DNA of 39,294 bases. It comes from Phoronis australis. Taxonomy: Eukaryota > Animalia > Phoronida. The position numbers and the translations under genes are program-made. This document shows positions 932-36,553 of this stretch, one piece after another (position 1 is the first letter of the stretch; every line of letters starts with the position of its first letter). The notes below the pieces were generated by a model, which saw only the letters and a program-made list of their open reading frames with translations, was not told the DNA's origin and did no database searches. Location: contig NMRA01001150.1 of the NCBI GenBank assembly GCA_002633005.1, forward strand, positions 8,998-48,291, read 5' to 3'.

Positions 932-1061
932 TTGTCTTAAAGGCCTGTCCTCTTCATCAACATCAGACATGTCACAGCTCAATTGGTCATCTTCAGTAGC
1001 CACGGATTCTCTAGACTTTGTGGCAAATACCAGTCTTCACTGCTGTCACTCTCCACTTCAT
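932..1061 (-). CDS. Acidic C-terminal exon of the transposase (DEVESDSSEDWYLPQ / SRESVATEDDQLSCDMSDVDEEDRPLRQ) with an apparent 1-nt frameshift near 1017-1019
   Basis: Acceptor ttagcag at 1062-1068 and donor GTGAGT at 926-931; phase-1 entry fits the exon ending at 2926; the two acidic halves are in different frames. Confidence 0.55.
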
Positions 1062-4000
1062 CTGCTAAGTCAAGGAAAGCTTGATGAAAGTAGCTTAAAC
1101 TGACCTCAACTTTTTTGGCAAGGTGATGCCATGGTTAGTGTTGAGCTTTACTATACATCAAAAGTGTGTTTCCTGAGATATTACCTAGATTAAACAGCTA
1201 GTATAATCCCATTTTTGATGGACCAGCAGTATCTACTTAAAAGCTATCACAAAACCACTTACTCTTAAAATACTAAATTTAGATCACTTCCTTCAACAAA
1301 ACTGATGTCAATTTGTTACGCAAATGAGCAATAATTCCCGAGATTTTGAAGAAATGCCCATAAAAATACAACGAATACTAAATTGTCTTTTCAATAACCG
1401 TAAAGGTTGGGGTATGATTGAAAATTTGAAAAAGATGAAAACTAACTAAATGTATTTGGTAATGGGGGACCACTCAGGCCTTATGGAAAATGGCACTTTG
1501 GAAACTATTTAAAGATATCTCAAACGAATTCCAAAAAAATGTTTGTTTTAACAAGATTTTTTCAAAGGCCACGACCTCCAACCCTGGACCTCTGGCATAG
1601 AAAGTAGTTACAAAAGATGAGGCAAGCCGAGATAGGTTGATCGATTCATTGCAATGTTTATAGTTCAGTATGTGATATATATAGATTATTATTACATGTT
1701 CTCAGTCAATATCCCCCTTATCTAGAGCCCGAGTGGATTTTGTAGAATTATCGCCCTCACGCAGGGCTAATACCCCTCAGCAATAATTTTACAAAATCCA
1801 CTTGGGCTCTAGACTACAGGGGATAACGGATTCGCCATGTCATAATCTATATTCAGGTTGAATGTGGAAGTACTGGTTCAAAATTTTGATGATACAATCT
1901 AAGAAATATACAAAAACATCCTACAGCTTATTGTTTAATTTGGATGAAAAAAGAAGGAATCTGAAGTTAAACTTCTATCTAAATATGGTCTGGCTGAATC
2001 ACTGAGACAACCTTTATTAATGATTTTTCTCAACATGTTATACACTTTTATTTACAAGGCTGGCAGAGCGACATTGATAACAACTTTAAGTTAAGATGCA
2101 TTTCTCAATTTAAATTAGAGTACATGAATTAGTTGAACCTTACTTGTTATCAGATTTGCCGGGAAATTCATAATGTAGCTGTCGAAACCGGCTGGCATAA
2201 TATTGTTACCTATTTGACCACATGTCTCATTTCTGTCCAAACAATATCGAAAATGAATATCATTTTGCACTTGTATGCCCATCATTTCATGATTTAGGTT
2301 TAGATTTACGTATACAGGAAAAATATTGGAGCAGTCGCAATGTCAATAAATTTATTAGTTTTCATAAAAAATCTTGACAGATATTAGTATCATTAACCAT
2401 TGATTTAGTTGGAGATCCTCATTGCATTATACCAAACGGACTAAAAAATTGTTGGAATTAAGAACTACCATTTAATAAATTTTTAAGCCAACAATATTCT
2501 TTCAAAATTCATCCTGGGCAACCTCAGGTTATTCAATGGAATGTGTGCATCGCCTCCTACAAAATGCAAGATCTGGGATGCTTGAATTCCAAATAATTTA
2601 TGACATTCTCTGTTCCACTTAAGTGCTATTTCAAGATTAAGTATTTAAAATTCTGTTTTAGTGCTAAATGTCTGGTGACTCCAGCATTATGGATAATAGT
2701 TCGAGTCAGAACCCATCATTTCAAGTATTTTCTTGCAAGAATGCAGGATGAGAGATATGTATCCCAGCACAGAATAAATAATACATGTAAAGACTTTGCA
2801 CAAAAGTAGAACAGAAGATATCAAAAATATTTTGAAGTTCGATTTTGACCCTGCCTCCACAAGCACAACTTGCTGATAAAAAATAAAATAGGGTTGAAAA
2901 AGTACTGTGACTGGTGGTATCTTACCCTCTGTACCATCTAGCTTTTGGAACCACTGGCTCCACCATTCCTTATCGTCTTCGTTAGTCATGAATTTGCTGG
3001 CTGTCATAATTCCACTTTTTAGCTTGTGCAGCTCCAGCTTTTCATAGTTTGGGGTCAGCAACTTTGGGTGATTGAGTGGTATTGACGTAAGCAAGTATGG
3101 CCCTGCATAAACACAGCAGTGAGATTAATGCATAAAGCAACTTTAATTTGCACAATATTACACTTTGGTTGGAGAGTGCTTATAAGGAAGTAAAAGATCA
3201 ACCTGTTGCATAACAATGAAAAGGAAATTCAGCAAGAATGCTGGCACAGACTGCCACAGACTTCTCTTATGACTGAACTTTTGTACGTGTCTGGAAGCAA
3301 CACTTAGGACTCAGTCACAAGTCTTATTAAATCCTGACAAGTTCAATTAACAGTGAAAAGAGTATGACAAATTAATTATTTCTTCAGCAAAAACACGACA
3401 TTGTGGATGTTTGGTACCGGATTAATGTATTAATGCCAAACTCCGTGATGCAAAACCATCACACATGAATTGAATGTAATATGTAACAGCTTTGATAAAA
3501 CAGGATACCTACCAGTTTCTATGTTAAAGTCCGCTGGTGTCCAGTTGCTGTCAGTGGACCACTTTTTTACAGAGATGGAGCACTTGCCGTTATGAAGGGA
3601 AAATTTAAATTGGTGAGGCAATGAGTGATTGTGCATGGGATTTAAGTGAGGTTTTATCCATGCACTTATGTTATACATTTTGGAAAACAAAAACGAAACA
3701 GGGTTTGGTGTTGTGCATCTTGAGAACGCTTCCATTAATTTTGGATTCGTAAGGATCGAATGGCGAGCTAAGTAGGTAGAAAAACGAGAAAAAAACCTGG
3801 TCCACATCTTCATGAGTATGGCCCACCATTAAAAAACCAACTTTAATTTTGGAAAAAATTCTCATTTCCACCAAAAGCGCACAAAGCCCAAAAATTACAA
3901 TATTCTTATTTTCCCTCCAACAATTGTCCATTTGGAGATACAAAATTGGGGGCAAAAAGCTCATACATGACAGTGTTCGGAGCAGGACATTGGCAGTCAC

Positions 4001-7000
4001 ATCTGGCCCGTGTCCCCACTGCCCAACGTCAAAAAACCGATAGTTTGATGTCCGTGGTTAATTACCCCAGTCAGATGAGTCCTTAATTGATGTAATTTTT
4101 GTAAAGTTTTGCTATATATGTTGAAAGCCGGTAGATTTGTTTTTTGCTGGTCCATGCCATCCAGAATTATGCAAGCGTATTTACTAGGGTGAGACCTTGC
4201 CTTGGAGCTGTGTTTGTAATATTTTTTTCTCTTATTGCTGAAAAATAATAAGTTTCATTATTCAATTAAGATACTCTCATTTCCACCAGATTAGAATGCA
4301 AAAACCTGTTATCACTTAAACATGGGGACATTTAGAAATTAGAACAGTCCATGTATTTTCAATTTTACCACCAGACTTCAAATAAGAAAATTAAAAGCTA
4401 CCCACTTTAAAGTGATGATTAAAAGCCCATTAAGGAAATATACATGCAGTACGATTTGAAAACACCTTCAATGTTGCCAATAATTAATTCCAGGATTCCG
4501 ATCACAGTGCAATTAGTACCAACCAGGTATATTTGAAGTTTACCATGTAAACTGCAGTTGTGGCACATACCTTTGTTTANTTTGATAAAACAGGATACCT
4601 ACCAGTTTCTATGTTAAAGTCCGCTGGTGTCCAGTTGCTGTCAGTGGACCACTTTTTTACAGAGATGGAGCACTTGCCGTTATGAAGCGAAAATTTAAAT
4701 TGGTGAGGCAATGAGTGATTATGCATGGGATTTAAGTGAGGTTTTATCCATGCACTTATGTTATACATTTTGGAAAACAAAAACGAAACAGGGTTTGGTG
4801 TTGTGCATCTTGAGAACGCTTCCATTAATTTTGGAATCGTAAGGATCGAATGGCGAGCCATGTATGTAGAAAAACGCGAAAAAACTTGGTCCACATCTTC
4901 ATGAGTATGGCCCACCATTAAAAAACCAACTTTAATTTTCGAAAAAATTCTCATTTCCACCAAAAGCGCACAAAGCCCAAAAATTACAATATTCTTATTT
5001 TCCCTCCAACAATTGTCCATTTGGAGATACAAAATTGGGGGCAAAAAGCTCATACATGACAGTGTTCGGAGCAGGACATTGGCAGTCACATCTGGCCCGT
5101 GTCCCCACTGCCCAACGTCAAAAAAACCGATAGTTTGATGTCCGTGGTTAATTACCCCAGTCAGATGAGTCCTTGATTTATGTAATTTTTGTAAAGTTTT
5201 GCTATATAAGTTGAAAGCCGGTAGATTTGTTTTTAGTATGTGATAATTTTTCAATGTAATCAAAAACTATTAAATTAACAGCTACCTTATTAAGTTTTGC
5301 ATGGTAGAAGTCAATTGTGACCACAATTTGTAGTGTACCCTTTTATACAACTGCGCTGCATTAAGCCATTAAATTTTATTCGGTGGTTCTTGTGCAAAAA
5401 AAATTTAGATTAGAAACCTGGAATGATGGTACTTTAAAATAACCTAGCTTTTACAGTTATATGACAACCATCATTTTTCACCAAAAGTGGCCACCGAAAA
5501 TGGACCTTGATTGTGATTCGTCCGTCTATATTGGCCATAAAGAACTGCAAACATTGCAACGTGGGCCTAATCTATTTTCAAAACCAGTTTCTAATTTGTT
5601 TCTAACTTGTTTTCACTCAATTAGACATTCGGTAAAAAAGTTGCCTATTGCAGATGTACGTGAAATTACAATACCCGGCAAATGAATGTCATTTTGCCCC
5701 TTTAAGGTAAACGATCAGTGAGACGGACGGATAGTTGCGTTGAACACCTGACAGATACTTCACATTTCTGCCAAACATCTGCAACCGAGCAAATACTTAG
5801 AACCCAACAAACATACGCTGAACTTGGTGACACGACTTGATACCCGCTATTGCGGCAGACCTGGTTCTGATTCCAAGGCAAGGCCTCTCCCAAGTGTCTA
5901 TTAGCTCTATCACACAAGAATGCCCTGTTCCAGCCCTGACCAACAGTACGGTAGTTCATTGACCCAGTCAAGTCAACACTGGCTGAATTCTCTGTCAATG
6001 AAAATTGTTTCGTGCCCTCAGTTATCTATACTTGGGCACCCAAAGAAAATTCATGTAGCGTTTCCCAGCTAAAACTTCAATCTTACAGACTTGTAAAAAG
6101 TGCAGTGACCCCAACCAACTCCACATTTTAAGCCTGACTTGTTTACCAAATGATACCCATGGGAGGTGCAGCAGGAGGCTGGAGGCTATAAAGCCCTCCT
6201 TTTGCCAGTGCTGCGCCGCCCCTGGATACCCCTAGACTCACAATGCAACATTCCGATCTATTTCAAAAACGTATCCTCATGATTATAATTGAAGAACCAT
6301 TAGTATTTTAGTCTTACATTACTTTATCCATGTTTTAGCGAAATTTCTTTATTGTGGCACCTGGCAAGGGATTGAACTTTGGCATGTAAACCATTACAGT
6401 CATGGATTAGTTGGTAACTGACTGACAACACCAACTCCAAAAAAATCAAATGCCACACAATATCAAATTGTTAAAACATCAAGATTATTGAAAATTTGCG
6501 TATATACAGTAAATCAAATTATAACAGTACAAGTGGCATCTGTGGAATCTGTTTGCTACTTCCTTTCGGAATCGGGATGCTGATCATAAAAATTTATTAC
6601 TATAACATGTAATATTACCGATCCTTCTACTGCTACATAACCTTGGGATCATGTAAGTGCAGGTGAAAACTTATGTGAAAATATCTCATGTAGTTAACAG
6701 GAAACTTAATGCCAAAAGCAACATTGAGATCACGTTCTCACAACCTATCCCGACAAACTGCTGAATGAATAACTATCTAAGTGACACAGAACACAAAACT
6801 TTACACTTCTGGAAATTATTATGAAACTTCTGGTTCATAAAATTGTGTTTCAGGTCACAAACAGAGCAGAGTCAAGTGAAAAAATACAAAAATAATTCTG
6901 AATCACCTCTTTTTGTTAACAGTAAAACCTCCCCAATGCAATAATAAAACCATCTTGTATGCAACTACTACAATTAATCCTAAATTAGTAGAACCCTTTA

Positions 7001-10000: not shown

Positions 10001-12831
10001 GCGAGTTTTGGGAAATGGCACGTAAGTGCACGTGTCACGAGATTGCACTGTTTCCTAAACGACGGCAGATAGTAGGATTTGCCTTTGTAACAAAAGGCAG
10101 AGAATAACGAAAAATGTTTATTAAATTTTGTTTACTTCAGTAAATGGCTGTAACAGGCACTGTGAGTGTTGATTCATACCCAGATTTTGCATGCACCACT
10201 GCAGGTTGTTAACTCAAAGTTTCACGACGAGGTGACGAGCTGAGCACCAAGGTTGTGCCACTGAAATTTCGGTGTCTAAACGGAGCTCTACACACAGCTA
10301 CCTAGCTGTATGTTGACGACAGTCTTCATACAGCTATAGCTGGCTTTCTACCTCAGTATGTACATTTATGATGTAACTTTTGTACGGCAGATAGAGTATT
10401 AGCCAAAATTTTGTCCTTCTGACATTCACACCCCGGACTGCCAAATGAAATCTGGGAGAATTTTATGGAGGCCATGGCCCCCTTGGCCCCCCTCCAAATC
10501 CGCCACTGACACCTATATACTGTGTGTACAATACAATATTTTAAATGCATTCTTAGTTTTCACTTTAAACTGAAGAATATCTGATTACAGTACTTTGTGT
10601 CACGGCCGATTCCCACAGCTGCACACCTTAATTGCCTACTAAAAATCTGACAGGTGACAGAAATTCTGCTTGAATCTTTGAACACAGTCTCTTCAAGAAG
10701 TATTCCCGTTTCTAGCGATGAACACTAGATTGGTTCACTCTTAGGTGTAGCTATTTCCCCTCGACGTTTCCCACTAGCAGCTACCCGTGCTTTCACACAG
10801 GTAACGGCTAGTTGGACTATATTCCATGTTGCCGATTCAAAAGGGAGCCTCAGTTATATAGCTCTGTCAAGGGTGGATAAAAGATGTTCCAGTTAGTTTT
10901 CTGGCCCTCATGTCATGTTTACCTCCAAGACTAAATTCTAAAGGCCCTTCATATTGACTTAACTCCAGTCAGAGGGGAGGGTCTATGTAAACAGCCCAGT
11001 TAGGTACCTTATTCATAAAAAATAGCCATTTTTACAATATGTCACGCGTCTAGAAAAATACCTTATTCTCGGGGAAATTCAAATACAAAATGTATACTAC
11101 GTAGCGAAAAAAAGATTTAACAGAACCATCTTGGAACCGCACAACCACGTGCATATTTGTTTACTACTTATCCAAGGTCAAACCGAATCTGCCGCCAGGT
11201 ACAGAACAGCTGCGTATACCCTCAGTCCTTTTATTCACAAAATCACCATAACATTGAGTCAACGAGGTGTACTTATGGTAGAATGGTGCCGGAGAAAACA
11301 AAGACAAAACGTAGTTTTGATCCTAAGGAAGTTAATGTGCGTCTCCATGCATACGACCCTTGGTGTTGAGAACGAATGCTATGGTCGCCTCAGGCCTCTG
11401 TGGTCATGAACACAGCAAGTTGTGATTAAGAGATAAATCCTCACCCTAATTCATTTAATTAAACAAGTGACATTTCAATGAACTGTGACCTATTGCAAAC
11501 AATAGGAAGAGTTAACTGGGAATGATACGTTTAATCATAAATTAAGTAAATTACGCACTGCAAAATCAGTTGACATTACAAGTGAATGTTGAAATAGTGA
11601 ACTGAAAACAAGTTTTCACCAAATAACCAACCAAAGACTTTGAGATTTTCACTTCTCCCTGCAGTTTAATTGACTTTCTTGTCTTTGGCAAATCGACTTT
11701 ATTTGAACTTAGGAACACGAGTTCTCGAAAACGGCTCGGTGGTTTTCGCTGAAACTTTACAAATAATTTAATGTTAAGTCATCAATTTCAAAACCACTGT
11801 CTCTTGCAATGAACACTCAGTTCACTCTTAGGTGTAGCTATTTCCCTTTGGCGTTTCCCACTAGCTGCTACCCCTGCGAAAGCAAGGGTAACAGCTAGTA
11901 CTAACTATATTCAGTGCAACATTGTTCCCCAACTGGTCCTGAACAACCATTTTATGGCCTGGCCAAGGCCTAAGCTATTCATTACAAAGAACTAATCCCA
12001 GCATGACCTATAATCTAATTATACTGGCATCACTACTCACAGTAGGAGCTGGGCCTGACAGGAGGTGGACTAAACTGGTTGATCTACTTATGAAATCTGG
12101 CCATGTTCACAACATGACTACTCAAATTAAATATTTTGGCAGCAACATGAAACACCTTACTTTTCCTCGGAATTGTGTAGAGCAGGGGCATATCTTCATT
12201 TGAGGAGTCATCTGACAGAGGTTCCCTTTGAACAGTTGAGCCTTTTGGTCTTCCCCTTTTTTTGCCTTGCAAATTAAAAAAAATAATAGACTTAGTAATG
12301 ACAATACAATTTGGTTCTGAATGCCGGAAATAACTTAAAAAACATTGCTCATTCAAATAAGGTTTTGTTGGCATCAAATCCAGTAAAATCACAAAGTCTA
12401 TTCATAGCACAGGTATGCCTTTTTGGGTACTAATGGACAACACAATGTCCCTAAAGACTAATAGCTTAACACCTGATGAATTATTAAAGAGGTTACTACA
12501 AACAAATGTTCACGACTTGTCTCGTATGAGAGAACAGCTATTTTCACAAATTGTCTTTGTAAATCAAACTCAACTTAACTACAAAGTAAATAAATATTAT
12601 CTATTTCGCAATGTTGAAACATGAATTAAAAAGTGATAATTTTAACTGAAAGTACCAAAAACTACACCAGTTGTGATTGTGAAGAACTCCCAACTAACAC
12701 ATCACATCTTATTTGAAATTTCAAATTTACCACAATACTTTTGGCTCATGGACAATGTTAGACACAGAGACACAATACCGACAACATAAACTAACCTTGT
12801 GCAGCTGCAGACTTCTCCATATTTTCTTCAC
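932..12831 (-). CDS. Multi-exon Sola-like (DUF7869-type) DDD transposase. Exons 12796-12831, 12161-12265, 8983-9282, [middle exons missing at the 4580-7392 assembly break], 4571-4579 (cut by N), 3513-4237, 2926-3102, 932-1061. Probably continues left of the window
   Basis: GT-AG bounded, phase-compatible exons; motifs KYYKHSSKARSHPSKYACIILDGMDQQKTNLP, LYLQMDNCWRENKN, FLMVGHTHEDVDQVFS; N-terminal CCICLCL...EQRLWMFNYL...IGTTKLCLVGWRLVLG. Confidence 0.8.
1679..1852. mobile_element. Short near-palindromic MITE
   Basis: Ends atatagattat / ataatctatat; inner arm tctagagcccgagtggattttgtagaattat pairs with ataattttacaaaatccacttgggctctaga. Confidence 0.7.
1856..2400 (+). pseudogene. Degenerate 3' fragment of a non-LTR retrotransposon ORF2 (RTE-X/CR1-like C-terminus with Cys/His knuckle), in a transposase intron
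   Basis: Frameshifted translation KYWFKILM...YSLLFNLDEK...SEVKLLSKYGL...FYLQGWQSDIDNNFKLR...HNVAVETGW...HFCPNNIENEYHFALVCPSFHDL. Confidence 0.7.
2926..3102 (-). CDS. Transposase exon (GPYLLTSIPLNHPKLLTPNYEKL...DDKEWWSQWFQKLDGTE)
   Basis: Acceptor tgcag ending at 3103, donor GTAAG at 2921-2925, phase 1/1; lies inside ORF 2687..3094. Confidence 0.8.
3513..4237 (-). CDS. Catalytic-core exon of the transposase, with two homopolymer frameshifts in this copy (A7 at 3789-3795, A6 at 4031-4036)
   Basis: Acceptor tttttcag ending at 4238, donor GTAGGT starting at 3512; holds DGMDQ, QMDNC and GHTHEDVD; the second copy at 4603-5234 is open across both positions. Confidence 0.88.
4581..5234 (-). pseudogene. 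Second, 5'-truncated copy (allele or paralog) of the catalytic exon, equivalent to 3491-4144; open frame but lacking DGMDQ
   Basis: ORF 4577..5263 is near-identical to 3491-4144; homology stops at TTTT 5231-5234. Confidence 0.85.
5231..7391 (+). repeat. ~2.16-kb near-identical direct copy of 36459-38617
   Basis: Colinear sequence; ORFs 5702..5998 and 6998..7198 recur as 36930..37226 and 38224..38424; this copy ends at the N at 7392. Confidence 0.95.
8983..9282 (-). CDS. Cys-rich N-terminal exon of the Sola-like transposase
   Basis: Acceptor catttcag, donor GTAAGT at 8977-8982, 300 nt, phase 1/1; CCICLCL...ARATFLKMSKSEQRLWMFNYL...FTIGTTKLCLVGWRLVLG. Confidence 0.75.
10718..10826 (+). repeat. 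~100-bp dispersed repeat, copy 1
   Basis: ttcactcttaggtgtagctatttccc...cgtttcccactagc(a/t)gctaccc shared with 11809-11913. Confidence 0.75.
11809..11913 (+). repeat. ~100-bp dispersed repeat, copy 2
   Basis: Same core as 10718-10826, moderately diverged. Confidence 0.75.
12161..12265 (-). CDS. AT-hook exon (GKKRGRPKGSTVQREPLSDDSSNEDMPLLYTIPRK), probably part of the transposase gene
   Basis: 105 nt, phase 1/1, donor GTAAGG, AAG acceptor; RGRP AT-hook core; in frame with 8983-9282. Confidence 0.6.
12796..12831 (-). CDS. Candidate 36-nt micro-exon (EENMEKSAAAQ)
   Basis: cattag acceptor, GTTAGT donor, phase 1/1, no stop. Confidence 0.4.
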
Positions 12832-19496: not shown

Positions 19497-19544
19497 ATGT
19501 ATCTTCGCTTGATGATGTGACATCTTCCAGAATCAGCAAATCAT
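19497..19544 (-). CDS. Candidate 48-nt micro-exon (DDLLILEDVTSSSEDT)
   Basis: ctttgtgttgtag acceptor, GTGAGT donor, phase 1/1. Confidence 0.4.
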
Positions 19545-20586: not shown

Positions 20587-23174
20587 TAATTGGCATAAAA
20601 CTTATTTCTAGTTCCAATTTGTGATTATTCAAGCAAAATTAATTTTAGAAACTTGTTATCGATGGCACTAGCTGCCCTTTAATTGTTGGCAATAACAGTG
20701 GTCATATCAGTGGATATATTGGCCATTTCATAGTATACAACAATCTGTGGCATGCTTCCCTTGATATAAACCAGAAAAGTGATTAAAACAGAAACAGTGA
20801 AAACTTACCTTCGCCACTGTGAACTCCTTCACTAGTACTGCAGGATGCCATAGTATGGAAAGCTATGAGCTCTTAGGCTTTGCAAACTAGCTTAAAAGAA
20901 GGACAGAACAATGGAACAGCATGACAAAAACACTCCCACAGAACAGCTTAACTACAGTTATGTTGCACTGAGTCAGACAGTCTTATGTCAGTGTCTCCAC
21001 CTCATTCTTGTACACAGAAATCCTTTTGCTTCATGCAGTTAGTTGTTTTCATTTGTTTGTACCTGAAGTCAGTACATAAAGCAGGTATTCACACTTGCTG
21101 GGCAAGGTAATGACTAGCTCTCAACAACTGGAAACAGTTAATCCTAAGAAGGTCAACTGCCATATCTTTGTGTGCTTAAATTTATCACTGAGATTTGGGA
21201 GCTTTGCTAAATATTATATAACTCCATATTGTCCAATTCTGCATTGTCCTGTTACTAAAAGTAGCAACCTCACCATATAATAACTATTATTTATTTAATA
21301 CACAAAGTTACAAAATTAGAAGATTAGTGATTTTAAGTTAAGATTTAGTAGCATTTTTTATTTCAGTGTAAACAAAAGAGGCATCAAAGTAAAACCATGT
21401 TGTGAACATATCCACTACCACAAGAAACTATAGGAACACTGCATTTATCCACCTTCAATCTTATCAGGCTTCTATTGTGAGTCAGCGTGTGTGAATAATT
21501 GGCTGAATTATTCTTGGCTGAATGGATGACTAGGCCTTAAAATGATAGTTAACCAAGACCAGTTAAATAATGCTGCATGAAATAGTTAATACCTTCATGG
21601 CAATTTTGAAAGAGTGGGCATCTTCTGCTAGTTTTTCACTGAAAATATTTTTAAAAACTTGGTTTACTGACCTTTGATTTTCTGGATTATGCAAACATGA
21701 ATTAAAAAATTCAAATTTGCAACGTTTCCATTTTAGCCATCATTTTGCTACGGAAACAAGAAAAAATTGGTAACAATCATTCCATGCAACAAAGAATATG
21801 TCATAGGATCACCTAGCCTTGCTGGAAAGCTGTATACCGGACACTTCGCAAAATTCATTTCACGGGAAGTGGACGCTTATTGTANTAATTGGCATAAAAC
21901 TTATTTCTAGTTCCAATTTGTGATTATTCAAGCAAAATTAATTTTAGAAACTTGTTATCGACTAGCTGCCCTTTAATTGTTGGCAATAACAGTGGTCATA
22001 TCAGTGGATATATTGGCCATTTCATAGTATACAACAATCTGTGGCATGCTTCCCTTGATATAAACCAGGAAAAGTGATTAAAACAGAAACAGTGAAAACT
22101 TACCTTCGCCACTGTGAACTCCTTCAATAGTACTGCAGGATGCCATAGTATGGATAGCTATGAGCTCTTAGGCTTTGCAAACTAGCTTAAAAGAAGGACA
22201 GAACAATGAAACAGCATGACAAAAACACTCCCACAGAACAGCTTAACTACAGTTATGTTGCACTGAGTCAGGCAGTCTTATGTCAGTGTCTCCACCTCAT
22301 TCTTGTACACAGAAATCCTTTTGCTTCATGCAGTTAAGTTGTTTTCATTTGTTTGTACCTGAAGTCAGTACATAAAGCAGGTATTCACACTTGCTGGGCA
22401 AGGTAATGACTAGCTCTCAACAACTGGAAACAGTTAATCCTAAGAAGGTCAACTGCCGTATCTTTGTGTGCTTATCACTGAGATTTGGGAGCTTTGCTAA
22501 ATATTATATAACTCCATATTGTCCAATTCTGCATTGTCCTGTTACTAAAAGTAGCAACCTCACCATATAATAACTATTATTTATTTAATACACAAAGTTA
22601 TAAAATTAGAAGATTAGTGATTTTAAGTTAAGATTTAGTAGCATTTTTTATTTCAGTGTAAACAAAAGGGGCATCAAAGTAAAACCATGTTGTAAACATA
22701 TCCACTACCACAAGAAACTATAGGAACACTGCATTTATCCACCTTCAATCTTATCAGGCTTCTATTGTGAGTCAGCATGTGTGAATAATTGGCTGAATTA
22801 TTCTTGGCTGAATGGATGACTAGGCCTTAAAATGATAGTTAACCAAGACCAGTTAAATAATGCTGCAGGGAATAGTTAATACCTTCATGGCAATTTTGAA
22901 AGAGTGGGCATCTTCTGCTAGTTTTTCACTGAAAATATTTTAAAAAACTTGGTTTACTGACCTCTGATTTTCTGGATTATGCAAACATGAATTAAAAAAT
23001 TCAAATTTGCAACGTTTCCATTTTAGCCATCATTTTGCTACGGAAACAAGAAAAAATTGGTAACAATCATTCCATGCAACAAAGAATATGTCATAGAATC
23101 ACCTAGCCTTGCTGGAAAGCTGTATACCGGACACTTCGCAAAATTCATTTCACGGGAAGTGGACGCTTATTGTA
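20587..23174 (+). repeat. Tandem near-identical duplication 20587-21884 / 21886-23174 across a single N (probable uncollapsed allelic overlap)
   Basis: The copies meet at N 21885 and differ by scattered SNPs and small indels. Confidence 0.9.
20809..20851 (-). CDS. Candidate first coding exon (MASCSTSEGVHSGE) of the minus-strand gene; duplicate at 22104-22146
   Basis: ACTATGG start context, AG|GTAAGT donor, phase 1 matching downstream phase-1 exons. Confidence 0.45.
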
Positions 23175-24427: not shown

Positions 24428-24476
24428 TCGGCCACACCCCCACAGTTTTCCCTGATTAGTGAGGTTGTGACGTCAT
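24428..24476. promoter_or_regulatory. Candidate promoter elements (GCCACACCCC box, CRE palindrome TGACGTCA at 24468-24475) between the divergent genes
   Basis: Motif match and position only. Confidence 0.25.
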
Positions 24477-25861: not shown

Positions 25862-28800
25862 ATGTCCTGGTATTTTGTTAAAGAAGCAGACAAGGTGTAT
25901 TTGTATGTTGGCGGTGTCAAAGTAAGGAGACCAACCGATGGTGAAGAATGTGGGCCAATAGATAAGATATTTCCTGGAAAGAACAAAGAGAGTGTTCAGG
26001 TAAGAGAATACTCTAATAAACTGCAGGGCATTTAAATTCAAACCTCATCACCAGTCTTCGTTGTGTAATGGGTGAGCCAGTGTTGCAATCCGAGAATAAA
26101 GTGTTTTCAATTATGAAAACAAAATAAGTATTTTTGCAACAGAAATTATTTCACCAAATGGAAAAAAATTAGTTTAAGTTAAATTTTGATTTCTATATTA
26201 TCTGAACTCTGGGGCCAGAAGGTGTTTTTTCCATTTTGATTTTTGGGTGCATTATTTTACAAAATGTTCAATTCAACTTTTTGTCATGCTTTCACATGCA
26301 CACTTACATTTGGGGGTTTGGATACCATAATGCCAGTGTGAGCTTAACGCCTGACTGTGGCTAAGCTGCCTTAATCAATTCAAATTAGCGGTGCTTGTGA
26401 AGAAAACCTATGTAATGCATTTTACTTTTCAATTTTATAAACAACTACCGTAGTCATGATGGTCATTTGCCTTAACCTATTGTTCACTTTTTGACTCTTG
26501 AGTAATGTATCAAACAGGAGAGTTTTTTACAGACTGCAATAATCTCATCCAACACACACTTGACCAAGTGAAGGAATAGCTCATTTCTATCACAGCTAGC
26601 CCCATCAACCCTTTGATATGTCAATGAATTTCACAAGATACATTAACTATTAATAGTGCACACTTTCTCGCCCCATTCTAAGAAAATGCCATGAGCGATA
26701 TTGTTACCAAATGCTCATGAAATCTCTTCCTTTTATTTATAGTTCAGTTTTCGTGACAGTGCAGAAAGACGGCACATGTACAGGCACCAGTTTGTGATGG
26801 ATCAGAATGACTTCTGCAAGAAGTTCAGGCGTCACACAGATTCAGCAGACTTTATGAACATCTTATGTGCCAACACTAAAGTTAAGCGTGGTACTAAACG
26901 GTCAAGCTATGGCAGTCAAGGTACACCCAAAAGGTCCCTTGTTACAATGCCCGACAATGAAGAGTGTACAACTACAACTTCATCCGCGGCAGAAGCGACT
27001 ACTGAAGAGCAATTACTGGTTGAGCAGCTCCCCATAGATCAAAGATGTCAGCATAAATATTTTGGTAAGAAAAATGTCATTCTTGATATTCACAAATAGC
27101 TTAATCATAAAACAGAACAGGTTTCTTTTCAATCCATCAAAGCAAGTTTTACTCCCTCATCAGCCTTCGACACAGANGCTAGAATATTTATGTAGTTACT
27201 GCAACCAAAATTGTCCAGAGGTTCCAAATCTTCAGTTTGGCTATCACCATATCAGTACTTATATATATATTTTATGATTTGAGTTCTAATAAGATTGAAC
27301 TTGAACTAATGGTATATGTAGTTTTGTTTGCTATGACATGTTTGGTGTAGCTGTAATCTGGAAAATTCACGGATGGATTCACAATACTGACTTCTAAGTT
27401 GTTTGATAATTCGTTTAAACACAAAATAAAAAGATAGCAACCCTACGGTAACCGGTAAGAAAAAACAAGTAGGCAGGAATATTAAAATAAAGTAATGAAA
27501 ACAGGTATGAAACATATTTAAAACAAACCTTTGGGAAGTGACCCTTTGTCAAGATCAATGCAGACTAACTTTTTAGTCTTTTTGTAATATTCAAAATGTA
27601 CCAAATTAAAACTGCTTTCCACATTGCAGGCTTTAACTCTGTGCAAATGCCAGAGAAAATGAATTTGGATGTAATAAGGATCACCATTGTTAAGAAAGTA
27701 ATGCTAGTTATTACCTTTCCACTTCATTAGCTCAGATCTACATCAATACAAAGGGCTTGCTGATCAGTATCATGAAAGTTGTCTGGGGCTTAGGGAATCA
27801 GAGTGGTAACCAGTGTAAGCAAGAAATTCTCCACATGTGGAGTACAGGAAGGGCAACTGGAAATAGGTAGTTCAAATAAATGTGAATTTATTAAATGTGA
27901 TCTTGTTAATGCGTGAGGACCATGTGAATTGTTAAAGCAATTATTCAAGAAGAATAATTGTGCAGCTTCACTGTTCAGTTCACTCCATATAGAGAAAGGT
28001 ACACAAATGGGAACTCGTAGAAGAGGGAGAATATGCGGCATATGCAATCTGAGTAAATTCAAGATGTCAATATCATATCTCCTGTGTCGATGCCTAGTTC
28101 ATANTTTGGCTATCACCATATCTGTACTTATATATATATTTTATGATTTGAGTTCTAATAAGATTGAACTTGAACTAATGGTATGTGTAGTTTTGTTTGC
28201 TATGACATGTTTGGTGTAGCTGTAATCTGGAAAATTCACGGATGGATTCACAATACTGACTTCTAAGTTGTTTGATAATTCGTTTAAACACAAAATAAAA
28301 AGATAGCAACCCTACGGTAACCGGTAAGAAAAAAACAAGTAGGCAGGAATATTAAAATAAAGTAATGAAAACAGGTGTGAAACATATTTAAAACAAACCT
28401 TTGGGAAGTGGCCCTTTGTCAAGATCAATGCAGACTAACTTTTTAGTCTTTTTGTAATATTCAAAATGTACCAAATTAAAACTGCTTTCCACATTGCAGG
28501 CATTAACTCTGTGCAAATGCCAGAGAAAATGAATTTGAATGTAATAAGGATCACCATTGTTAAGAAAGTAATGCTAGTTATTACCTTTCCACTTTATTAG
28601 CTCAGATCTACATCAATACAAAGGGCTTGCTGATCAGTATCATAAAAGTTGTCTGGGAGAGTGGTAACCAGTGTAAGCAAGAAATTCTCCACATGTGGAG
28701 TACAGAAAGGGCAACTGGAAATAGGCAGTTCAAATAAATGTGAATTTATTAAATGTGATCTTGTTAATGCGTGAGGAGCATGTGAATTGTTAAAGCAATT

Positions 28801-31800
28801 ATTCAAGAAGAATAATTGTGCAGCTTCACTGTTCAGTTCACTCCATATAGAGAAAGGTACACAAATGGGAACTCGTAGAAGAGAGAGAATATGCGGCATA
28901 TGCAATCTGAGTAAATTCAAGATGTCAATATCATATCTCCTGTGTCGATGCCTAGTTCATAGAGACGTTAGAAAAAACCTAGCTGAGCTTGTGAATGTTC
29001 TGGGTTAATTGTTCTAAAACCCCTCAACGACTCGCTCAACCCACAACCTTGACCCACGACCTCCTTAACCCACGGCCCCCTCGACAGGCCTTTATGCAGC
29101 GTACGCCCTGGGCGTCCAAATGGACACCCTAGCACGTGACTAATATGGACGACCTGGCGAGGACGTCCAATGTATCATTTGATGCCCACTATCAATAGGA
29201 TCCTTTCAAGTTTGGACACACACATTGTAATGATTACTAGGATCAAAGCCTATGAAGACTCACAGTGGTACTTGGCTCTTTTTTCAAAGCAGGAAGACAC
29301 AATGTATATACAAAGTACATACAATGTTGCTATGCTAACACATAGCATTGTAAAAGTCAAGTGTTTTGGTAAAATTGCTCACAACAGAAGGCTGTTTGTA
29401 AACTTCGATGTAAAAACCTTGGTCTATGCATATTTTTGTGAAAAAAATCTGTGTGTTTGGGGGGATTACTGAGGGTGGGGGGTTACGCGTCGGAATATTG
29501 GGAACCCCATGTTGGACAGTACCCTATTTTCGAAATCCTGGATAAAAGCCTGTCCCTCGACCCACGTCCTTCAACCTTGGACTATACACAAGCGTGACTC
29601 GATCTGAACTTAGAACAAACACTGACAATGCAGGAGCAATGAGTTGGGCGGTGAGCACAGCTGGATTTTAGGTTTTTTGCAATTAAGAGAGTGGGATTTG
29701 GCAAGTTTGAAAGCCAAACACTAGAAAAAAAACAATGCGACCAAATCAAATCAAAGACTAGCTACCACATTACAAATCTCATTCCTGGCAAAGTGTACTA
29801 GCTCTCAGATCTGCTGTAAATATTCTGAATATGCATATATGAATTTATGTATTCATGTATGTGAGGGCAACTCTGTAAGTAATATTGACATAAAATTTAA
29901 TTTGATTTCTATAAAACCTGTTTTCTATAAAACCTTTCAGATCGCATGAAAGTTGATGTGACTATACTTCAAAAACCCAAGCCTGAGCACCTGGCCAGGC
30001 CAGTGCAGAGGCAATGGGTGAATGAGCTGAAGTCTAGGATCTGTTCATCACCATCACCCATCACTACAGTGTTTCCTTGCCTTGTGGAGACAGAATTCGA
30101 AGAAGATGACCTCCACAATCAAGTCATATACACGCTGGGAGGAAATCATCTACGCACAGCACTGTCTGAAATACTGACGACAACCAATATAGACATGATC
30201 AGGTAAGCTTAAGGTTTGTGTACATAAATGATGACCGAACGTCAATTTTAAATGTATTCAGGCTAATTAAAATGCCTGGGTAATTGACTCTTGTTTAAAG
30301 ACAATTGTGTAATTGTAACTATATTTATTGATAGAATCTTGTCAGTAGCCTTCTGTTGGTTAAGTCTACATTAAAGGTTTACTATTTTACAGAAATGTAT
30401 GGATTGACGTGTATGTTGGACTGACAAATGAAGAGGTCAGGCGCCTAAGTAACAGCGACAACCTGAGAGCAGAGACAAGACGTCTCAGCTTTCAGGACAA
30501 GGTTCGGCAAGCCCGTGCAATACTGTTTGAGATGTCTGGTTTTAGCCCTTCCGAGAACCCACCTGCAGACCTACCTGTAGGATTCAAGGACATGGTCAAA
30601 GTGCAGCTTGCTATGCTTGATGTGGTATGTGCTTTTCATTAGCAGTTAGGTTTGTGTAGTGCAATGCAATAACACTTACAGCTAAGTTAGGAGTACAAAA
30701 GGAATGCATGTAAATATTTTCACTGAAGTTGGTATTTTGCTTACAAGCCAAGTACAGTTGCACATTCCAATAAAACTGAAACACATATACAACTTACTGA
30801 GTATTTTTTGCCATTTTCAGTGCTAAAATTACCGTCAACGTCCGGGTTAACACCCTGGGCGGTTAAATTGGCAAACACAAACATTGGGGGGTGGGCGGTT
30901 AACCAGACATGGGCGCTTAAACGTGAAATTTCAAGAAATCCAGGGTGGGCGGTTAACTGAACATGGGCGCTTATTACGACAGACAACCGACCTGGGCCAT
31001 TAATCTTGATCAGAGTACTACAGGACACACGTACTTGGAACGCGTAGAATTTTTCAAAGAGCTTTATCGTCAAGTCGCCAAATGTCGCTAAAAGTGTCAT
31101 AACAGCAGACGATCCCAAGAAATGTTCTGTTGCCCACAGGTTAGTCAATCACAATTAAATTTACAAAATTGGTGATCAGTAATAGCCCTGTGCCGTCCTG
31201 CGATCTTATTAGAGCTATAGTGCACAGATAGTAACAGTAACTTGGATTGCAACTATTCTCACGCGATAACACTTGTGTGCGCGTGCGAGCTTCACATGTT
31301 GCAGAGGTCACAGCAGACATCAGATTTACGGTGCTAGCTGTCAAGTTCCGAGTCAAAGACCAGTTTTAAAATCAACATCATGATGATGTATTTAAAGTTT
31401 GAAGAACAAATTCAGGTGTTTTTTGTGTTTTTGATGTTTATGTTGGAGATTAGATTAGACTCCGTGACTCATTTTCAATGTATGGTTCTGCGGCTAGCTG
31501 TTTATAATCTCGACCGCCTGGCGTTGCCCACTTCCAATTGCGTGAAACATGCGACTCAAAGAAGATGAGAATCAGGTGTAAGCGGACATGAGCCAGTCGT
31601 CAATCAAAAGTTACCGCAAAGGCATAAAAAGCAAGCATATGCTTAAGATTTTATTTTAAAATTACTAACACTATGACTGGAGAGGAGTCTAGTGAGCGTG
31701 TACAGTAGAGTCTGAGGAAAAAATTACCAGTTCGTACACGTATCTGCGTTGGTAAAAAACAATTCATAGATGTAGCCCCAATTCTTCGGGTGACCGGCAT

Positions 31801-33884
31801 CCGTGGTTTGCGCGGCTATACGACTAAATTAGTGAAGCGAGCTTCAACCAGCAACGCGTCCTTTCCGAGTCAGTGTTTTGCAACCGAGACTCCGCGCTCG
31901 GCATAACAAACTGCACGTCGCATTGCCGACCTGAAATTTAGAAATGCAAGCCGATATTATAGATGTCTTGTACCTGCCACCGGGAAATTCCAACCTAAGC
32001 AAGCCAGTTTTTGGGTTGGGGGAAATAGATAGGCCTACCTGGCAAACATAAAGCAACTCGAAAAACACATTTATTTTAAATGCAATATGTACAGATTATC
32101 CAATTATAATATCACCAATTTCAAATTCAACCATGTACGCTATTGTGCAAGCTATCATAATGATGAAGGCAATTAACATGTGCACTAAATTAAAAAGCAA
32201 TAGGCATGATGATACAAGGATTGTCCAAAATTCATGCTTTCAACAGTAATATTAAAAAGCAAATGCAGAACTGCATTTCAGTGAAACTTGTGTACCAACT
32301 TACATCCTGGCTTGTATACAGTTGTGCATACATTTTGCTTTTGTAGAGTGATGGAGCCCTCAGCACAATTTTGAAGCTGGCTAAGGCAAGTAATAGATGT
32401 TGGAAGTGCTTGCTGCACATATTTGTGGAAATGGACGAAAAATGCGCCAATGGAGAAAAATGCAATGTTTCTGTAAGTTAATTTAAGTTGTAATAGCACC
32501 CTTCTTTTGCTTGTGTTGAGCTGACTGTAGGTATAGCCCAACTGAATTGAACAGTCTTGTTGAGAGGAATCTGATAAGAACAGTATTTGATGACGCAACT
32601 AAGCAAATTTAAAGGATTGCCTCTGCAATCAGATACCTGTTACAACAACGTTTTAATTCAGTTTGAATTGACCTCAGAAATGTAAAAAGCCAATTGAACA
32701 ATAACGCGACATCGGAATTTTTTAATGATTTAATGGCTGACATCCAGTATGTGAAGCATGTGAAAGTTTTGTAATCGACATTACCAAGTTACATGATCTT
32801 TATCTTCACTTGACTACATTGTTTCAGACTTGCAAGTTTTGAATCAACATAATAAGGTAAATTATATTCCTTTGTATTTCAGGTATTTCAGAAATTTTGT
32901 GGGCTCTCTGAAAGTGAACTTTTTGGATATCTTGCAAAAATTACAAATGGCTTCATCCACCTCAATGACTGTGGAGCAACCATTGTGAAAGACAAGAAAA
33001 TGCGAACTCTCCAGCCACAATTTGTTCTGTTGACCAAAAGCAGCACATGGGAGGAAGCTAGAAGACAATTTCCCAACTGGACAAAACCTGAGAATCTGGA
33101 AGATCTGCTCCCTTTTGTTAAAGGTGATTTATGTTATTGTATAGGTGATTCCTATGATTTTTTTCTGTAGTGCAGCATGTCAAGTGAGCGTGGATGCCAA
33201 CTGAACTGAATTTGGTGCCGTTGTCCTGCTTTATGAACAGCAAACTCAAAATGTTGCACTTGTTGACATATTTGACATACTGAGTCCCCTTGCAGTATCC
33301 TATATCTGTGTCTTGTTTTTTAAATTTGAAGTGCTGGCAGCTTTGATTGTTGATTTTTGGCTTCAACTTGAACAGGAACTGATGATGTATAGGACTTGAA
33401 AACCAAGGAATTAAAAGTTTTAGAGAAATTGATAGAAGAAACATGGCTATTCCCATGACAAAAAACTTTCAATTCAATGGACCACTTATCATAGGCCAAT
33501 TTTAAAGCAAAATGCTTATTCGATGAAACAAAAGAAGCCATTTGATTGTTTAATTACAACAAAATTGATGCTTTGATAAATTTTTAATTTTTTAAAAACC
33601 TTTCAGCCCACCCGTCACAACAAGTGTTGGATTTTTGCCGACGTGCAAGATTAGACCAGCAAATACAAACTGAAGTGTTCATCACAGTAAAGCATAATGG
33701 AGTGGATATAACTGCCTATGACAAAGTTCAAGAACTAGTAAACAAGCATCAACAAGAAATTGCTAAAGTTGTGAAGTTTATGGAGCTTTCAGGCCCAAAA
33801 GACATAACCACTGAAGATGATTCCATGTTTGATGATGCTGATGATTCCCTGTTTGATAGTGTTGACTTGACAAGCCAGAAGTGA
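25862..33884 (+). CDS. 7-exon gene for a 532-aa protein with a ParB/sulfiredoxin-like domain. Exons 25862-25999, 26743-27064, 29941-30202, 30393-30624, 32347-32472, 32883-33123, 33607-33884
   Basis: All six introns GT-AG and phase compatible; 1599 nt with no internal stop; ParB-like pattern LARPVQRQWVNELKSRI...FPCLV...YTLGGNHLRTAL...VWIDVYVGLTNEEVRRLSNSDNLRAETRRLSFQDKV. Confidence 0.8.
27236..28961 (+). repeat. Tandem near-identical duplication 27236-28103 / 28105-28961 across a single N (probable allelic overlap)
   Basis: The copies meet at N 28104; duplicated short ORFs in the track. Confidence 0.9.
29085..29552. mobile_element. hAT-like non-autonomous element
   Basis: TIRs caggcctttatgcag / ctggataaaagcctg; flanking 8-mers cccctcga and tccctcga (7/8 match). 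Confidence 0.65.
29941..30624 (+). CDS. Exons 3-4 (29941-30202, 30393-30624) encoding the ParB/Srx-like domain
   Basis: ctttcag|AT...AG|gtaag and ttttacag|A...GTG|gtatgt; GGNHLR and DNLR motifs. Confidence 0.85.
30830..32070 (-). mobile_element. Degenerate pogo/Tigger-like DNA transposon relic in intron 4; one end visible, far boundary approximate
   Basis: Starts TACCGT...cgggttaa with repeated gggcggttaa/tgggcgctta, matching the MITE at 34151; decayed CENP-B-like HTH text VEARFTNLVV*PRKPRMPVTRRI on the minus strand. Confidence 0.45.
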
Positions 33885-34150
33885 TAACTTGTACATTAAC
33901 CAGCACTTTCATCGGTAATAAACATTAATCTAGTACCTGAAAACTTGTTAATCTGACCCTGCACCTCTGTGGCTGTTTTACAGTTAAGAGCAACCTGTGT
34001 AACAAACCACGTCATTCCTGTGTCCTTTGGCATGGATCTTGTTAGATTTACGTATAAGGATCCATATACCATGCTCACAAACAAATTTAGGAACATGAAG
34101 ATTAAATAACAACAACTTGCTTATTATCACCAAAGAAAAATAAATGGACA

Positions 34151-34313: not shown

Positions 34314-34349
34314 CAACATAATGTTACCATGTGATGCAGAATCAGTGCT

Positions 34350-35559
34350 GTAGTGTACGTACCCCCATGTTTACAAATGCCATGAAATTAAAATATCACT
34401 TGGTAATTGAGCAACATTGGTCATACACAGTTTTCATCCTTAAAAACATTAGGTTAAAAGAGCGTTTTTTGCAGTTACATTTGTTTTGTGTGAAATATTA
34501 GCATTTGTGTAGGGTACGTACCCCCATATTTTAATTTGTGTCTATTTTCAAAGTATGGCAGATATGCACATCAATACTGTGCTTTTTATTTTTTCTCTTT
34601 GAATTGATTTAGTAAATCAACTAACTCTCAGTAGATTCCTAGTATTTAGTTACAAACCTGACATGCCATTGAAATGTAGTGTATGTACCCCTCAGTCCAG
34701 TGTACGTACCCCCATATGAATAAATACCATGAAACAAAAATATTACATGGTAAGTAAGCAACACTTGTCAAAGACAGCTTCCTCCATTAAAAATGTTAGG
34801 TTAAAAGGGTGTTAATTACAAATACATTTGTTTTGAGTGAAATATTAGCATTTATATGTGCTAACTGCGAAGCGATACCGAAGCTAGTTTACAGTGAAAC
34901 AACACGTGTAGATGAGATAAAAGGTCATATATATTATGACAAACTAAACTACTACAGGTATCGGTAATTACAAACGTTATATAATATGTTGAACTGTAAA
35001 GGTGAGTGACAATGCATTTGTGTAGTGTACGTACCCCTATATTTTAACATGTGCCTGTTTTCAAAGAATTGTACAGATATGCACATGACTGCATGCTGCT
35101 TGTTCTCTTTGACTATTGGTAAGTGAACTAACTGTCAGTATATTTTAATTACTTTTTATAAACCTGAAAAGTCAGTGAAATGTGTACGTACCCCCGTGTA
35201 GTGTACGTACCTTCAACCTGTGTGCTATAAAGTACTGCCAACAAGAATTTTTACACACTGCTGTTCACATGAACAATTCAATACTGATATTTCTAAAATG
35301 AATACAGTCTGACAAGAAATGGACCTTATCAAATCTATGAACAATAAAATGCCACACAGGACTTGACTAAGTACTGAAAATCCTAGAAGTCACGTCATGT
35401 GACAACTGATATTGCAGTGGCAGGTTCTCTATCTCTCAAGACAACTTCAACTTGCAACAAAACAACAAGTGAAGGCAGCACAAAACTCGAGACCATCCCA
35501 TACATTTGTAACTTAGTCAGAATTTGACATTGATTGACGCACGTAGTGTACGTACCCCA
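34350..35559 (+). repeat. Array of the motif GTAGTGTACGTACCCC embedded in a diverged ~347-bp tandem unit
   Basis: GTACGTAC core at 34355, 34514, 34702, 35027, 35184, 35203, 35548; variant GTATGTAC at 34681; all in the same orientation. Confidence 0.9.
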
Positions 35560-36553
35560 TCAACCAGTAACATTTTTTACGGTTTACAAGTGGAACACTG
35601 GGCCTAACATTGCTTTAACTATAGCTTGACTAACAGGTGAATGTATTGAAAACTAGGCAAATAGCACCAATAAAGTTTTTGAAAAAGTTGTAACTTCCCA
35701 TTTTCTATTTGTAAGAATCATATTGCAAGAGAAGGAAGTTCTCATTATACTGTGTTAAGATATGCAATGTATCATCATGTAGAACAACTTGATCAGTACG
35801 GTAATAACTTTTCTTATTTTAGTATGTGATAATTCTTCAATGTAATCAAAAACTATTAAATTAACAGCTACCTTATTAAGTTTTGCATGGTAGAAGTCAA
35901 TTGTGACCACAANCACATATAAATATGTGGGCGCATAAAAATGAATACAGTCTGACAAGAAACGGACCTTATCAAATCTATGAACAATAAAATGCCACAC
36001 AGGACTTGACTAGTACTGAAAATCCTAGAAGTCACGTCATGTGACAACTGATATTGCAGTGGCAGGTTCTCTATCTCTCAAGACAACTTAAACTTGCAAC
36101 AAAACAACAAGTGAAGGCAGCACAAAACTCGAGACCATCCCATACATTTGTAACTTAGTCAGAATTTGACATTGATTGACGCGCGTAGTGTACGTACCCC
36201 ATCAACCAGTAACATTTTTTACGGTTTACAAGTGGAACACTGGGCCTAACATTGCTTTAACTATAGCTTGACTAACAGGTGAATGTATTGAAAACTAGGC
36301 AAATAGCACCAATAAAGTTGTTGAAAAAGTTGTAACTTCCCATTTTCTATTTGTAAGAATCATATTGCAAGAGAAGGAAGTTCTCATTATACTGTGTTAA
36401 GATATGCAATGTATCATCATGTAGAACAACTTGATCAGTACGGTAATAACTTTTCTTATTTTGGTATGTGATAATTCTTCAATGTAATCAAAAACTATTA
36501 AATTAACAGCTACCTTATTAAGTTTTGCATGGTAGAAGTCGATTGTGACCACA
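35295..36553 (+). repeat. Near-identical duplication 35295-35912 / 35938-36553 around the single N at 35913 (probable allelic overlap)
   Basis: Colinear copies with few SNPs. Confidence 0.88.

Follow-up and report, generated by a model that had tools for sequence, protein, structure and literature searches.

What does a spliced gene for a ParB-like protein do in an animal genome, next to a transposase gene and a cluster of near-palindromic sites? We address this question in the phoronid Phoronis australis, in a stretch of 39,294 nucleotides (nt) taken from contig NMRA01001150.1 (positions 8,998 to 48,291) of assembly GCA_002633005.1; this whole stretch is called the window below, and coordinates are counted from its first letter. 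On balance, we lean toward the reading that the ParB-like gene serves a very large cut-and-paste transposon as an accessory gene and that its product binds the adjacent array of sites. An accessory role is preferred over that of an ordinary host gene because the gene is accompanied by the palindrome array, by a divergently oriented transposase gene, and by a second, internally deleted version of the region. We found no report of a ParB-like gene in animal transposons in the open-access literature, where searches for metazoan and mollusc cases gave one BREX paper and a paper on the alga Ectocarpus that is considered below.

The ParB-like gene, its product, and its relatives

The gene lies on the plus strand, where seven exons, separated by introns that are all of the GT-AG type, join into 1,599 nt, or 532 codons and a stop. 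Exon 1 (25862..25999) carries the ATG and residues 1-46 of an N-terminal domain and ends at a GT donor. Exon 2 (26743..27064, flanked by AG and GT) encodes residues 47-153, comprising the end of this domain and a basic Thr/Glu-rich linker. The first part of the predicted ParB/sulfiredoxin (Srx) domain, with R173 and the string G220-G221-N222-H223-L224-R225, falls in exon 3 (29941..30202; residues 154-241), while exon 4 (30393..30624; residues 241-318) holds the end of that domain (D263-N264) and the first helices of a putative DNA-binding region. Exons 5 (32347..32472; residues 319-360, a putative helix-turn-helix region) and 6 (32883..33123; residues 361-441) are helical, and exon 7 (33607..33884; residues 441-532) encodes a predicted helix-hairpin-helix, an acidic tail, and the stop. 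The uninterrupted 532-residue frame had been proposed in a sequence-only reading of this locus and was borne out, with every peptide quoted there present in the product.

RNA evidence was drawn from raw reads of three runs labeled with the same species (X5 to X7, 18-19% of each run being sampled) and from contigs of a further data set, X1. Four reads of X5 and five of X6 skip intron 6 (33123>33607), which no X7 read does; for intron 3 (30202>30393), the spliced form is seen in two X5 reads and one X1 contig. Transcript support for the proposed junctions thus extends to two of six, introns 3 and 6, the other four being absent among the joints listed (15 of 40). First mates of the junction reads map to the minus strand, which corresponds to plus-strand RNA in most stranded libraries. 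Depth over the exons is low (about 0-3, with the bins of exons 1 and 2 at 0-0.23 in X5 to X7).

Homologous proteins supply further support. Exons 3 to 7 each match a protein of the nemertean Tubulanus (P0003) in colinear order, at scores reached in 0/500 shuffles for each exon. The match of exon 5 covers P0003 residues 219-245 (0/500 shuffles) and is not significant against two other homologs, P0014 and P0033; exon 6 matches all three of the full-length homologs tested. Residues 2-63, which span the exon 1/2 junction, match Mytilus edulis P0033 (0/2000 shuffles). Exon 2 alone gave no significant homolog match, though its start falls within the match to P0033. At a homologous metagenome locus, L001, a phase-1 acceptor and a phase-0 donor stand at corresponding positions, including that of the exon 4 donor. 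Because homologs match across nearly all exons, the model is mostly backed despite the sparse RNA, and the ParB-like gene is a real spliced animal gene.

We next consider what the gene encodes. The fold was taken from an AlphaFold2 (AF2) model of P0003, which is 34% identical, built on a 31-row alignment that included exons 3 and 4. The predicted local distance difference test score (pLDDT) of this model is mostly 84-97 over residues 21-210 and 39-66 over residues 211-280. In a Foldseek search of the PDB, all 28 listed rows were ParB, Noc, KorB, PadC, Srx, or SbnI proteins, none of them reaching an E value of 0.001. A wide VIA search placed members of the ParB/Srx superfamily in its top eight positions (Z 5.5-8.1), and in a second VIA search the top 31 of 50 rows all belonged to this superfamily. 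The best VIA match was Myxococcus ParB (Z 9.8; root mean square deviation [rmsd] 2.6 over 93 aligned residues); sulfiredoxins scored Z 6.0-6.7. The model also matched viral ParB/Spo0J models, with E values down to 5e-5. Alignment continues into the helical region, over 174 residues of the model (37-289) for KorB at an rmsd of 7.2, over 188 residues (29-281) for pNOB8 ParB at 4.5, and over 134 residues for Caulobacter ParB at 3.9. The family is therefore predicted to have the ParB/Srx fold, as the sequence-only reading had supposed from motifs. The helical region that it placed after the domain is likewise present in the homolog model, where part of it can be aligned to the DNA-binding portions of KorB and ParB, making a helix-turn-helix region at this position plausible.

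The remaining parts of the protein are less telling. The first 64 residues of exon 7 are modeled as a helix-hairpin-helix (pLDDT 82.7). Such a fold is reminiscent of ParB dimer domains, and the exon 7 C-terminal domain may be one of these or the worn-down start of a methylase; structural searches with it gave no informative match. For the N-terminal domain of about 90 residues, all Atlas matches were below 0.9, a Myb-like match at 0.83 being a lead only. Pfam gave no match to a methyltransferase or a 2-oxoglutarate (2OG) oxygenase in the exons, the homologs, or 85 nearby open reading frame (ORF) pieces, and ParA had no match in 85 ORF pieces of at least 52 residues from 12.4-25.9 kb and 33.7-39.3 kb. 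The protein stops 91 residues into exon 7, and three full-length homologs stop in the same region. Judged from its sequence, the ParB-like protein carries no fused DNA-modifying enzyme, and whatever it does must then come from binding itself.

A full HMMER scan with exon 3 returned 28 clusters at an E value of 0.001 or below. Two of these, P0002 and P0012, were repetitive proteins without the motif described below and were dropped, and the 26 homologous clusters were kept. No longer protein matched exon 3 or exon 4 in word-index searches. An organism name was attached to 5 of the 27 clusters looked up, namely Tubulanus, Mytilus (three clusters, four species), and Lingula, all lophotrochozoan. 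Mytilus californianus has two near-identical loci of the family, and one Mytilus member is automatically labeled "ParB/Sulfiredoxin domain-containing." The spliced protein is 34% identical to P0003 over residues 134-494 (E 2e-62) and matches P0033 over residues 3-492; the named clusters are 23-48% identical to P0003. A tree of 23 rows was unresolved and left the window protein unplaced. As far as these sequences indicate, the distribution of the family is patchy and is not the pattern of a conserved ortholog.

Searches of Pfam, NCBIfam, and PHROGs gave no significant family for the exons or the homologs. The only ParB-named PHROGs row was phrog_723 (E 0.036, in 1 of 31 members), and no ParB emerged when PDB sequences were searched with a profile. 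Close prokaryotic or viral relatives were not found in plasmids (best E 8), in phages (best E 4), or in viral contigs (0/4 candidates). Among prokaryotic genome assemblies, one of six candidate stretches scored as a relative; it could stem from animal contamination or represent a genuine relative in bacteria.

The residues around the expected nucleotide site set this family apart. According to the published account of Myxococcus ParB (10.1101/2021.05.05.442810), catalysis depends on Q52 and E93, nucleotide binding on R95 (the R95A variant shows none), and ring closure on R54, R94, E126, and N127. The motif G-G-N-H-[LI]-R-x-A is present in 30 of 31 homologs of the window protein; of these 30, 29-30 retain G-G-N, 28 the His, and 26 the Arg two positions after it. 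The position of the GxxR arginine, equivalent to R95, is occupied by L, I, T, or S in all 30 motif-bearing homologs, and an alternative register places His there in 28 of 30 and Arg in one. The catalytic Glu position (E93) is Asn in 30/30, and the catalytic Gln (Q52) is found in only one of the 28 rows that have a residue there. Other ParB equivalents are kept: R54 as Arg in 28/29, G92 as Gly in 29/30, and N127 as Asn in all 22 rows with a residue. The register was set from sequence and known motifs rather than from residue-level superposition. At the position of the Srx catalytic cysteine, whose absence from the window protein had been noted from its sequence, Asn stands in 30 of 30 homologs. 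By these alignments, the family is neither a canonical cytidine triphosphatase (CTPase) nor a sulfiredoxin. The strict conservation of the motif suggests that the nucleotide pocket still matters.

The site array, the transposase gene, and a deleted version

Eight copies of GTGTACGTACCC, with at most one mismatch, follow the ParB-like gene, the first lying 465 bp past its stop codon and the last within 1.7 kb of it. The array (34349..35557, plus strand) has the consensus GTAGTGTACGTACCCC, with a palindromic 8-bp center, GTACGTAC, and its members are candidate parS-like sites. Their 12-bp cores are at 34353, 34512, 34679, 34700, 35025, 35182, 35201, and 35546 on the plus strand. A ninth site (36185..36200, plus strand) is a scaffold duplicate of the one at 35546, since 35295-35912 is repeated as 35938-36554 around an N at 35913. 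The site was not found elsewhere in the window with up to two mismatches. Clustering of this kind was seen in 0/100 shuffles. A stretch of 1.3 kb holds seven exact GTACGTAC centers; for any 8-bp palindrome, the maximum across 1000 shuffles of the de-duplicated window was five. The sites are carried in diverged units of about 160-350 bp that are 75-81% alike, and between these units the motif is better conserved (45 of 47 bases) than the rest (238 of 304; p 0.002).

An internally deleted version lacking both gene and array is present in the same scaffold. The segment 4581..7391 consists of 3491-4144 joined through a TTTT microhomology to 35817/36459-38617, and hence represents a second version without 4145-35816, that is, without the whole ParB-like gene and the array; the scaffold places it inside the transposase gene. 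The junction is real in reads, as an X2 contig spans it (4905-5363, one difference). Contig depth in X4 is 112.7, 111.9, 97.6, and 86 over the shared flanks versus 47.4, 45.9, 40.2, and 60.1 inside, and that in X2 is 14-23 versus 9-12; X2 and X4 are one sample, and these depths are rough and give no copy number. Haplotype-like duplicates at 20.6-23.2, 27.2-29.0, and 35.3-36.6 kb and differing X2/X4 contigs at 8-9.7 kb suggest that the interior is present on two haplotypes. A diploid interior together with double-depth flanks favors two loci, a full one and a deleted one that have at least 37-4144 and 35817-38617 in common.

Single Ns occur at 4580, 7392, 21885, 27177, 28104, and 35913, several of them flanked by tandem copies of 0.6-1.3 kb that are 97-99% identical. 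They resemble overlaps between haplotypes that the scaffolder did not collapse. An 870-bp duplication in intron 2 likewise surrounds a single N and looks like two adjoining haplotypes rather than an inserted element.

The gene on the minus strand has many exons and spans 928-22146, about 21 kb. It encodes DUF7869 (Pfam PF25273, E 2e-67 on the copy at 4581-5234), which we take to be a DDE transposase core. The distance from its ATG at 22146 to that of the ParB-like gene is 3.7 kb, and the two genes are divergently oriented. DUF7869 was named in no paper found in our literature search, and PMC4455052 and PMC6431247 were of no help in classifying it.

The inferred first coding exon of the transposase gene (22104..22146) has the ATG, a GT donor, and an open frame; it was not seen in RNA, and a haplotype duplicate of it lies near 20809-20851. 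Exon 2 (19497..19544, AG/GT) is the sequence into which the loose end of an X1 contig at 12831 continues, and exon 3 (12796..12831) is defined by splice sites and the X1 contig. Farther downstream on the minus strand are an exon with an AT-hook-like motif (12161..12265; boundaries set by eye, AT_hook E 0.2, below the cut-off), an exon that is a piece of a spliced X1 contig (8983..9282, AG/GT), the catalytic DUF7869 exon (3513..4237), which is covered by an X1 contig and differs from the copy at 4581-5234 by a -1/+1 indel pair, a further exon in an X1 contig (2926..3102), and a late exon (932..1061) in which the window is without 16 nt at 1018 carried by X1, X2, and X4 contigs.

A 2010-nt X1 contig lies on this gene in five exon-sized pieces (8983-9282, 4031-4239, 4602-5120, 2926-3101, and 928-1061), and X1, although labeled "DNA?", must for this reason be at least partly RNA. 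Over 4602-5120 the transcript shows no difference from the in-frame copy, and it carries the 16 nt missing at 1018. Its middle 392 nt and last 161 nt were unplaced in 1-15030; because the last 161 nt found no place in these first 15 kb, the gene probably runs off the left edge of the window. X1 depth is 4 or more in 30/30 bins of 22000-36000, a region that includes introns as well as the DNA separating the two ATGs, versus 6/30 empty bins in 1-15030. This cover could be nascent transcription across the ParB-like gene and a shared promoter.

Several other features were observed in the window. The C-terminal remnant of a reverse transcriptase of the long interspersed nuclear element (LINE) type lies on the minus strand at 15759-16295 (zf-RVT, E 0.001-0.003, below the cut-off), beside a 720-N gap, with a 50-bp direct repeat (14975-15024 and 16256-16305). 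Between the ParB-like gene and the array, a short element at 34151-34313 is bounded by 25-bp terminal inverted repeats and contains GGGCGGTTAA repeats, and a related copy occupies 30830-30985 in intron 4. Its high RNA depth and loose ends on both sides identify it as a high-copy miniature inverted-repeat transposable element. Near the left edge, seven GCGTGA copies form a cluster at 369-655, with an 11-bp tandem repeat at 561-607. Rfam gave no hits.

A probable transposon accessory gene and the competing explanations

If the ParB-like gene serves a transposon, it and the transposase gene would belong to one element of at least 38.6 kb, with ends outside 37-38617. The ParB-like protein would use its helical middle region to recognize the eight sites that follow its gene, and the near-palindromic form of the site makes it probable that it would do so as a dimer. 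Once bound to the array, it might mark the element as self and support or tune the element's transcription, and the effect could be anti-silencing or autoregulation, by analogy with KorB and VirB in bacteria. As the phosphate-binding arginine and both catalytic residues are missing, the protein most likely acts as a site-bound scaffold without canonical cytidine triphosphate (CTP) hydrolysis.

Several observations weigh against this model. The fold comes from the model of a homolog and not of the window protein, and the alignments past the ParB domain have rmsd values of 3.9-7.2. The test of motif conservation between repeat units is in part circular, since those very sites served to define the motif. 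The array stands on one side only; over its region, diverged RNA reads map to both strands and X1 depth is raised. These diverged reads, along with joints that have other unit numbers, reveal related arrays elsewhere in the genome, and these could have arisen from the same element or form a repeat of their own. A segmental duplication, or a 32-kb deletion that is heterozygous at one locus, as in a pooled sample, would also account for the depth ratio. No terminal inverted repeat (TIR) or target-site duplication (TSD) bounding the element was found in the window, its left-right matches of 10-24 bp being at chance level; two loci would place the ends outside the compared span and would thus explain why TIRs and TSDs were not found. 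Finally, the metagenome loci L001 and L002, at 3.2 and 2.5 kb, end near the gene and are too short to show its neighborhood; upstream of the gene they have no comparable palindrome cluster.

Some of the same observations would be expected if the ParB-like gene were a host gene, perhaps long domesticated, with the transposase a chance neighbor and the array an unrelated dispersed repeat. The seven exons with conserved intron positions, the absence of element ends from the window, the array-like sequence elsewhere in the genome (diverged reads, other unit numbers), and a depth pattern that can be an allelic deletion all suit such a gene. We nevertheless regard this as an unlikely, if respectable, alternative: a version without the whole gene exists at about equal depth; the five named clusters out of 27 are all lophotrochozoan, only 23-48% identical to P0003, and joined in an unresolved tree; and the layout of gene, array, and opposite-strand transposase is that of published algal elements. 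A transposon setting could also be combined with a different role for the array, in which case the sites would be a leftover or subterminal repeats to which the transposase binds, and the ParB-like protein would act elsewhere. Cut-and-paste elements commonly have subterminal repeats bound by their transposase, and the AT-hook-like motif of the transposase, though weak, would suit such binding. Against this, the array hugs the ParB-like gene, is missing from the deleted version, and is found 3 kb or more inside the shared right flank, and a matching array was not found near the left part of the window. These properties argue for a gene-plus-site module rather than for transposase-binding ends, and we judge a separation of protein and array to be improbable.

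The biochemical alternatives concern what the protein does at the array. In the same transposon setting, it might be a working sliding clamp gated by CTP, ATP, or some other nucleotide, with the conserved His223 and Arg225 taking the place of the canonical arginines; such a clamp would load onto the array and from there spread over the element. Strong conservation of G-G-N, of the His and the next-but-one Arg, and of the R54 and N127 equivalents would be explained by such a clamp, and the ParB fold binds diverse nucleoside triphosphates with a specificity unreadable from sequence, according to one study (10.1101/2025.10.10.680097). In that study, however, a change of the Box II arginine abolished binding in the NTP-binding ParB-fold proteins tested, the R95A variant of Myxococcus ParB binds no nucleotide (10.1101/2021.05.05.442810), and the arginine position holds L, I, T, or S in 30/30 homologs, or His in 28/30 in the alternative register. 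A nucleotide-gated clamp accordingly seems to us slightly less probable still, and the nucleotide dependence put forward in the sequence-only reading becomes doubtful, as the GxxR arginine and both catalytic residues are missing family-wide. We consider it very improbable that the protein belongs to the sulfiredoxin, serine-kinase, or nuclease branch of the fold and works as an enzyme in metabolism or nucleolysis. The G-G-x-H string does resemble the sulfiredoxin motif, and Srx, SerK, and SbnI are among the structural matches; yet no cysteine stands at the catalytic position, the DNA-binding ParBs score higher (Z 8.2-9.8 versus 5.3-6.7) and align further, and the array would be left unexplained. 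We saw no sign in support of the nuclease-like activity once suggested for this protein. What stands of that earlier interpretation is the fold, the missing cysteine, and the helical region.

Comparison with known systems

The accessory-gene reading can be set against bacterial ParB/Spo0J, Noc, KorB, and VirB clamps (7bnk, 7bm8, 6sdk, 8qa9, and 5k5d), with which the window protein shares a predicted N-terminal fold and a stretch of helices behind it. Equivalents of R54, G92, and N127 and the clustered palindromic candidate sites near the gene add to the likeness with bacterial CTPase clamps. The window protein differs from them in having no equivalents of Q52, E93, and R95, an extra N-terminal domain of about 90 residues, and an acidic tail; identity is 10-16%, the gene is spliced, no ParA was found in the ORF pieces scanned, and the candidate site is 12 bp long and slightly asymmetric. 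With sulfiredoxin it has in common the superfamily fold (Z 6.0-6.7) and the G-G-x-H string, but it lacks the catalytic Cys and the Arg that follows it, is about four times longer, and has further domains.

Closer parallels are found in large eukaryotic transposons. Plavaka (EnSpm) elements of the red alga Bostrychia carry PAG3, a ParB-oxygenase gene beside inverted-repeat arrays, as reported in 10.1101/2025.02.11.637652. The Phoronis locus resembles PAG3 in that a ParB-like gene adjoins an array of repeats and probably belongs to a transposon. As described there, PAG3 has a 2-oxoglutarate oxygenase domain and is accompanied by PAG1 and PAG2, whereas the window protein is without an enzyme, belongs to an animal, and lies beside a DUF7869 transposase. 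In Ectocarpus, the element Sola1-1_Ec32 is given as 21.5 kb in length, with a 1104-residue ParB-N4C/N6A methyltransferase, 282-bp TIRs, and 4-bp TSDs (PMC12477816). In this large DDE transposon, a ParB-like gene likewise lies on the strand opposite the transposase. Unlike its algal counterpart, the window protein has 532 residues and no methylase, and the ends of its element were not found in the window, where a size of at least 38.6 kb is inferred. The string "palindrom" is absent from the main text of the Ectocarpus paper. ParB-helix-turn-helix parts fused to adenine methylases are also on record from chlorophytes and chytrids (PMC4738411).

A further lead comes from an Atlas feature search with P0003, whose top three matches were fungal DUF3723 proteins (0.93-0.94; 172 shared features). 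DUF3723 is a conserved cargo of fungal Starship elements (10.1101/2021.12.13.472469). That these are the nearest feature clusters of P0003 suggests that DUF3723 proteins carry a similar ParB-like part. Pfam PF12520 (DUF3723) gave no match at E values up to 1 in 17 homologs, no literature pairing "DUF3723" with "ParB" was found, and Starships move by tyrosine recombinases, unlike the transposase-linked gene of the window; the likeness is a lead only.

It is tempting to speculate, well short of a firm claim, that a stand-alone ParB/parS-like module without an enzyme is present in giant transposons of marine invertebrates, that its ParB has exchanged the CTP switch for the G-G-N-H-L-R site and, loaded on palindromes of the element itself, shields tens of kilobases from silencing by the host, and that the same module, as DUF3723, may be the so far unexplained core cargo of Starships. 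If so, self-marking by site and clamp would be a general device of giant eukaryotic mobile elements. The locus offers a simple testable pair in an animal, one expressed protein and one 12-bp site, and the family-wide loss of the arginine with strict retention of a new motif bears on how the ParB switch can be rewired. Set beside the known systems, the Phoronis gene is a variation on the ParB-like genes of transposons: it has its own palindrome array, resides in an animal, is expressed, is free of a fused enzyme, and shows a family-wide change of the nucleotide motif.

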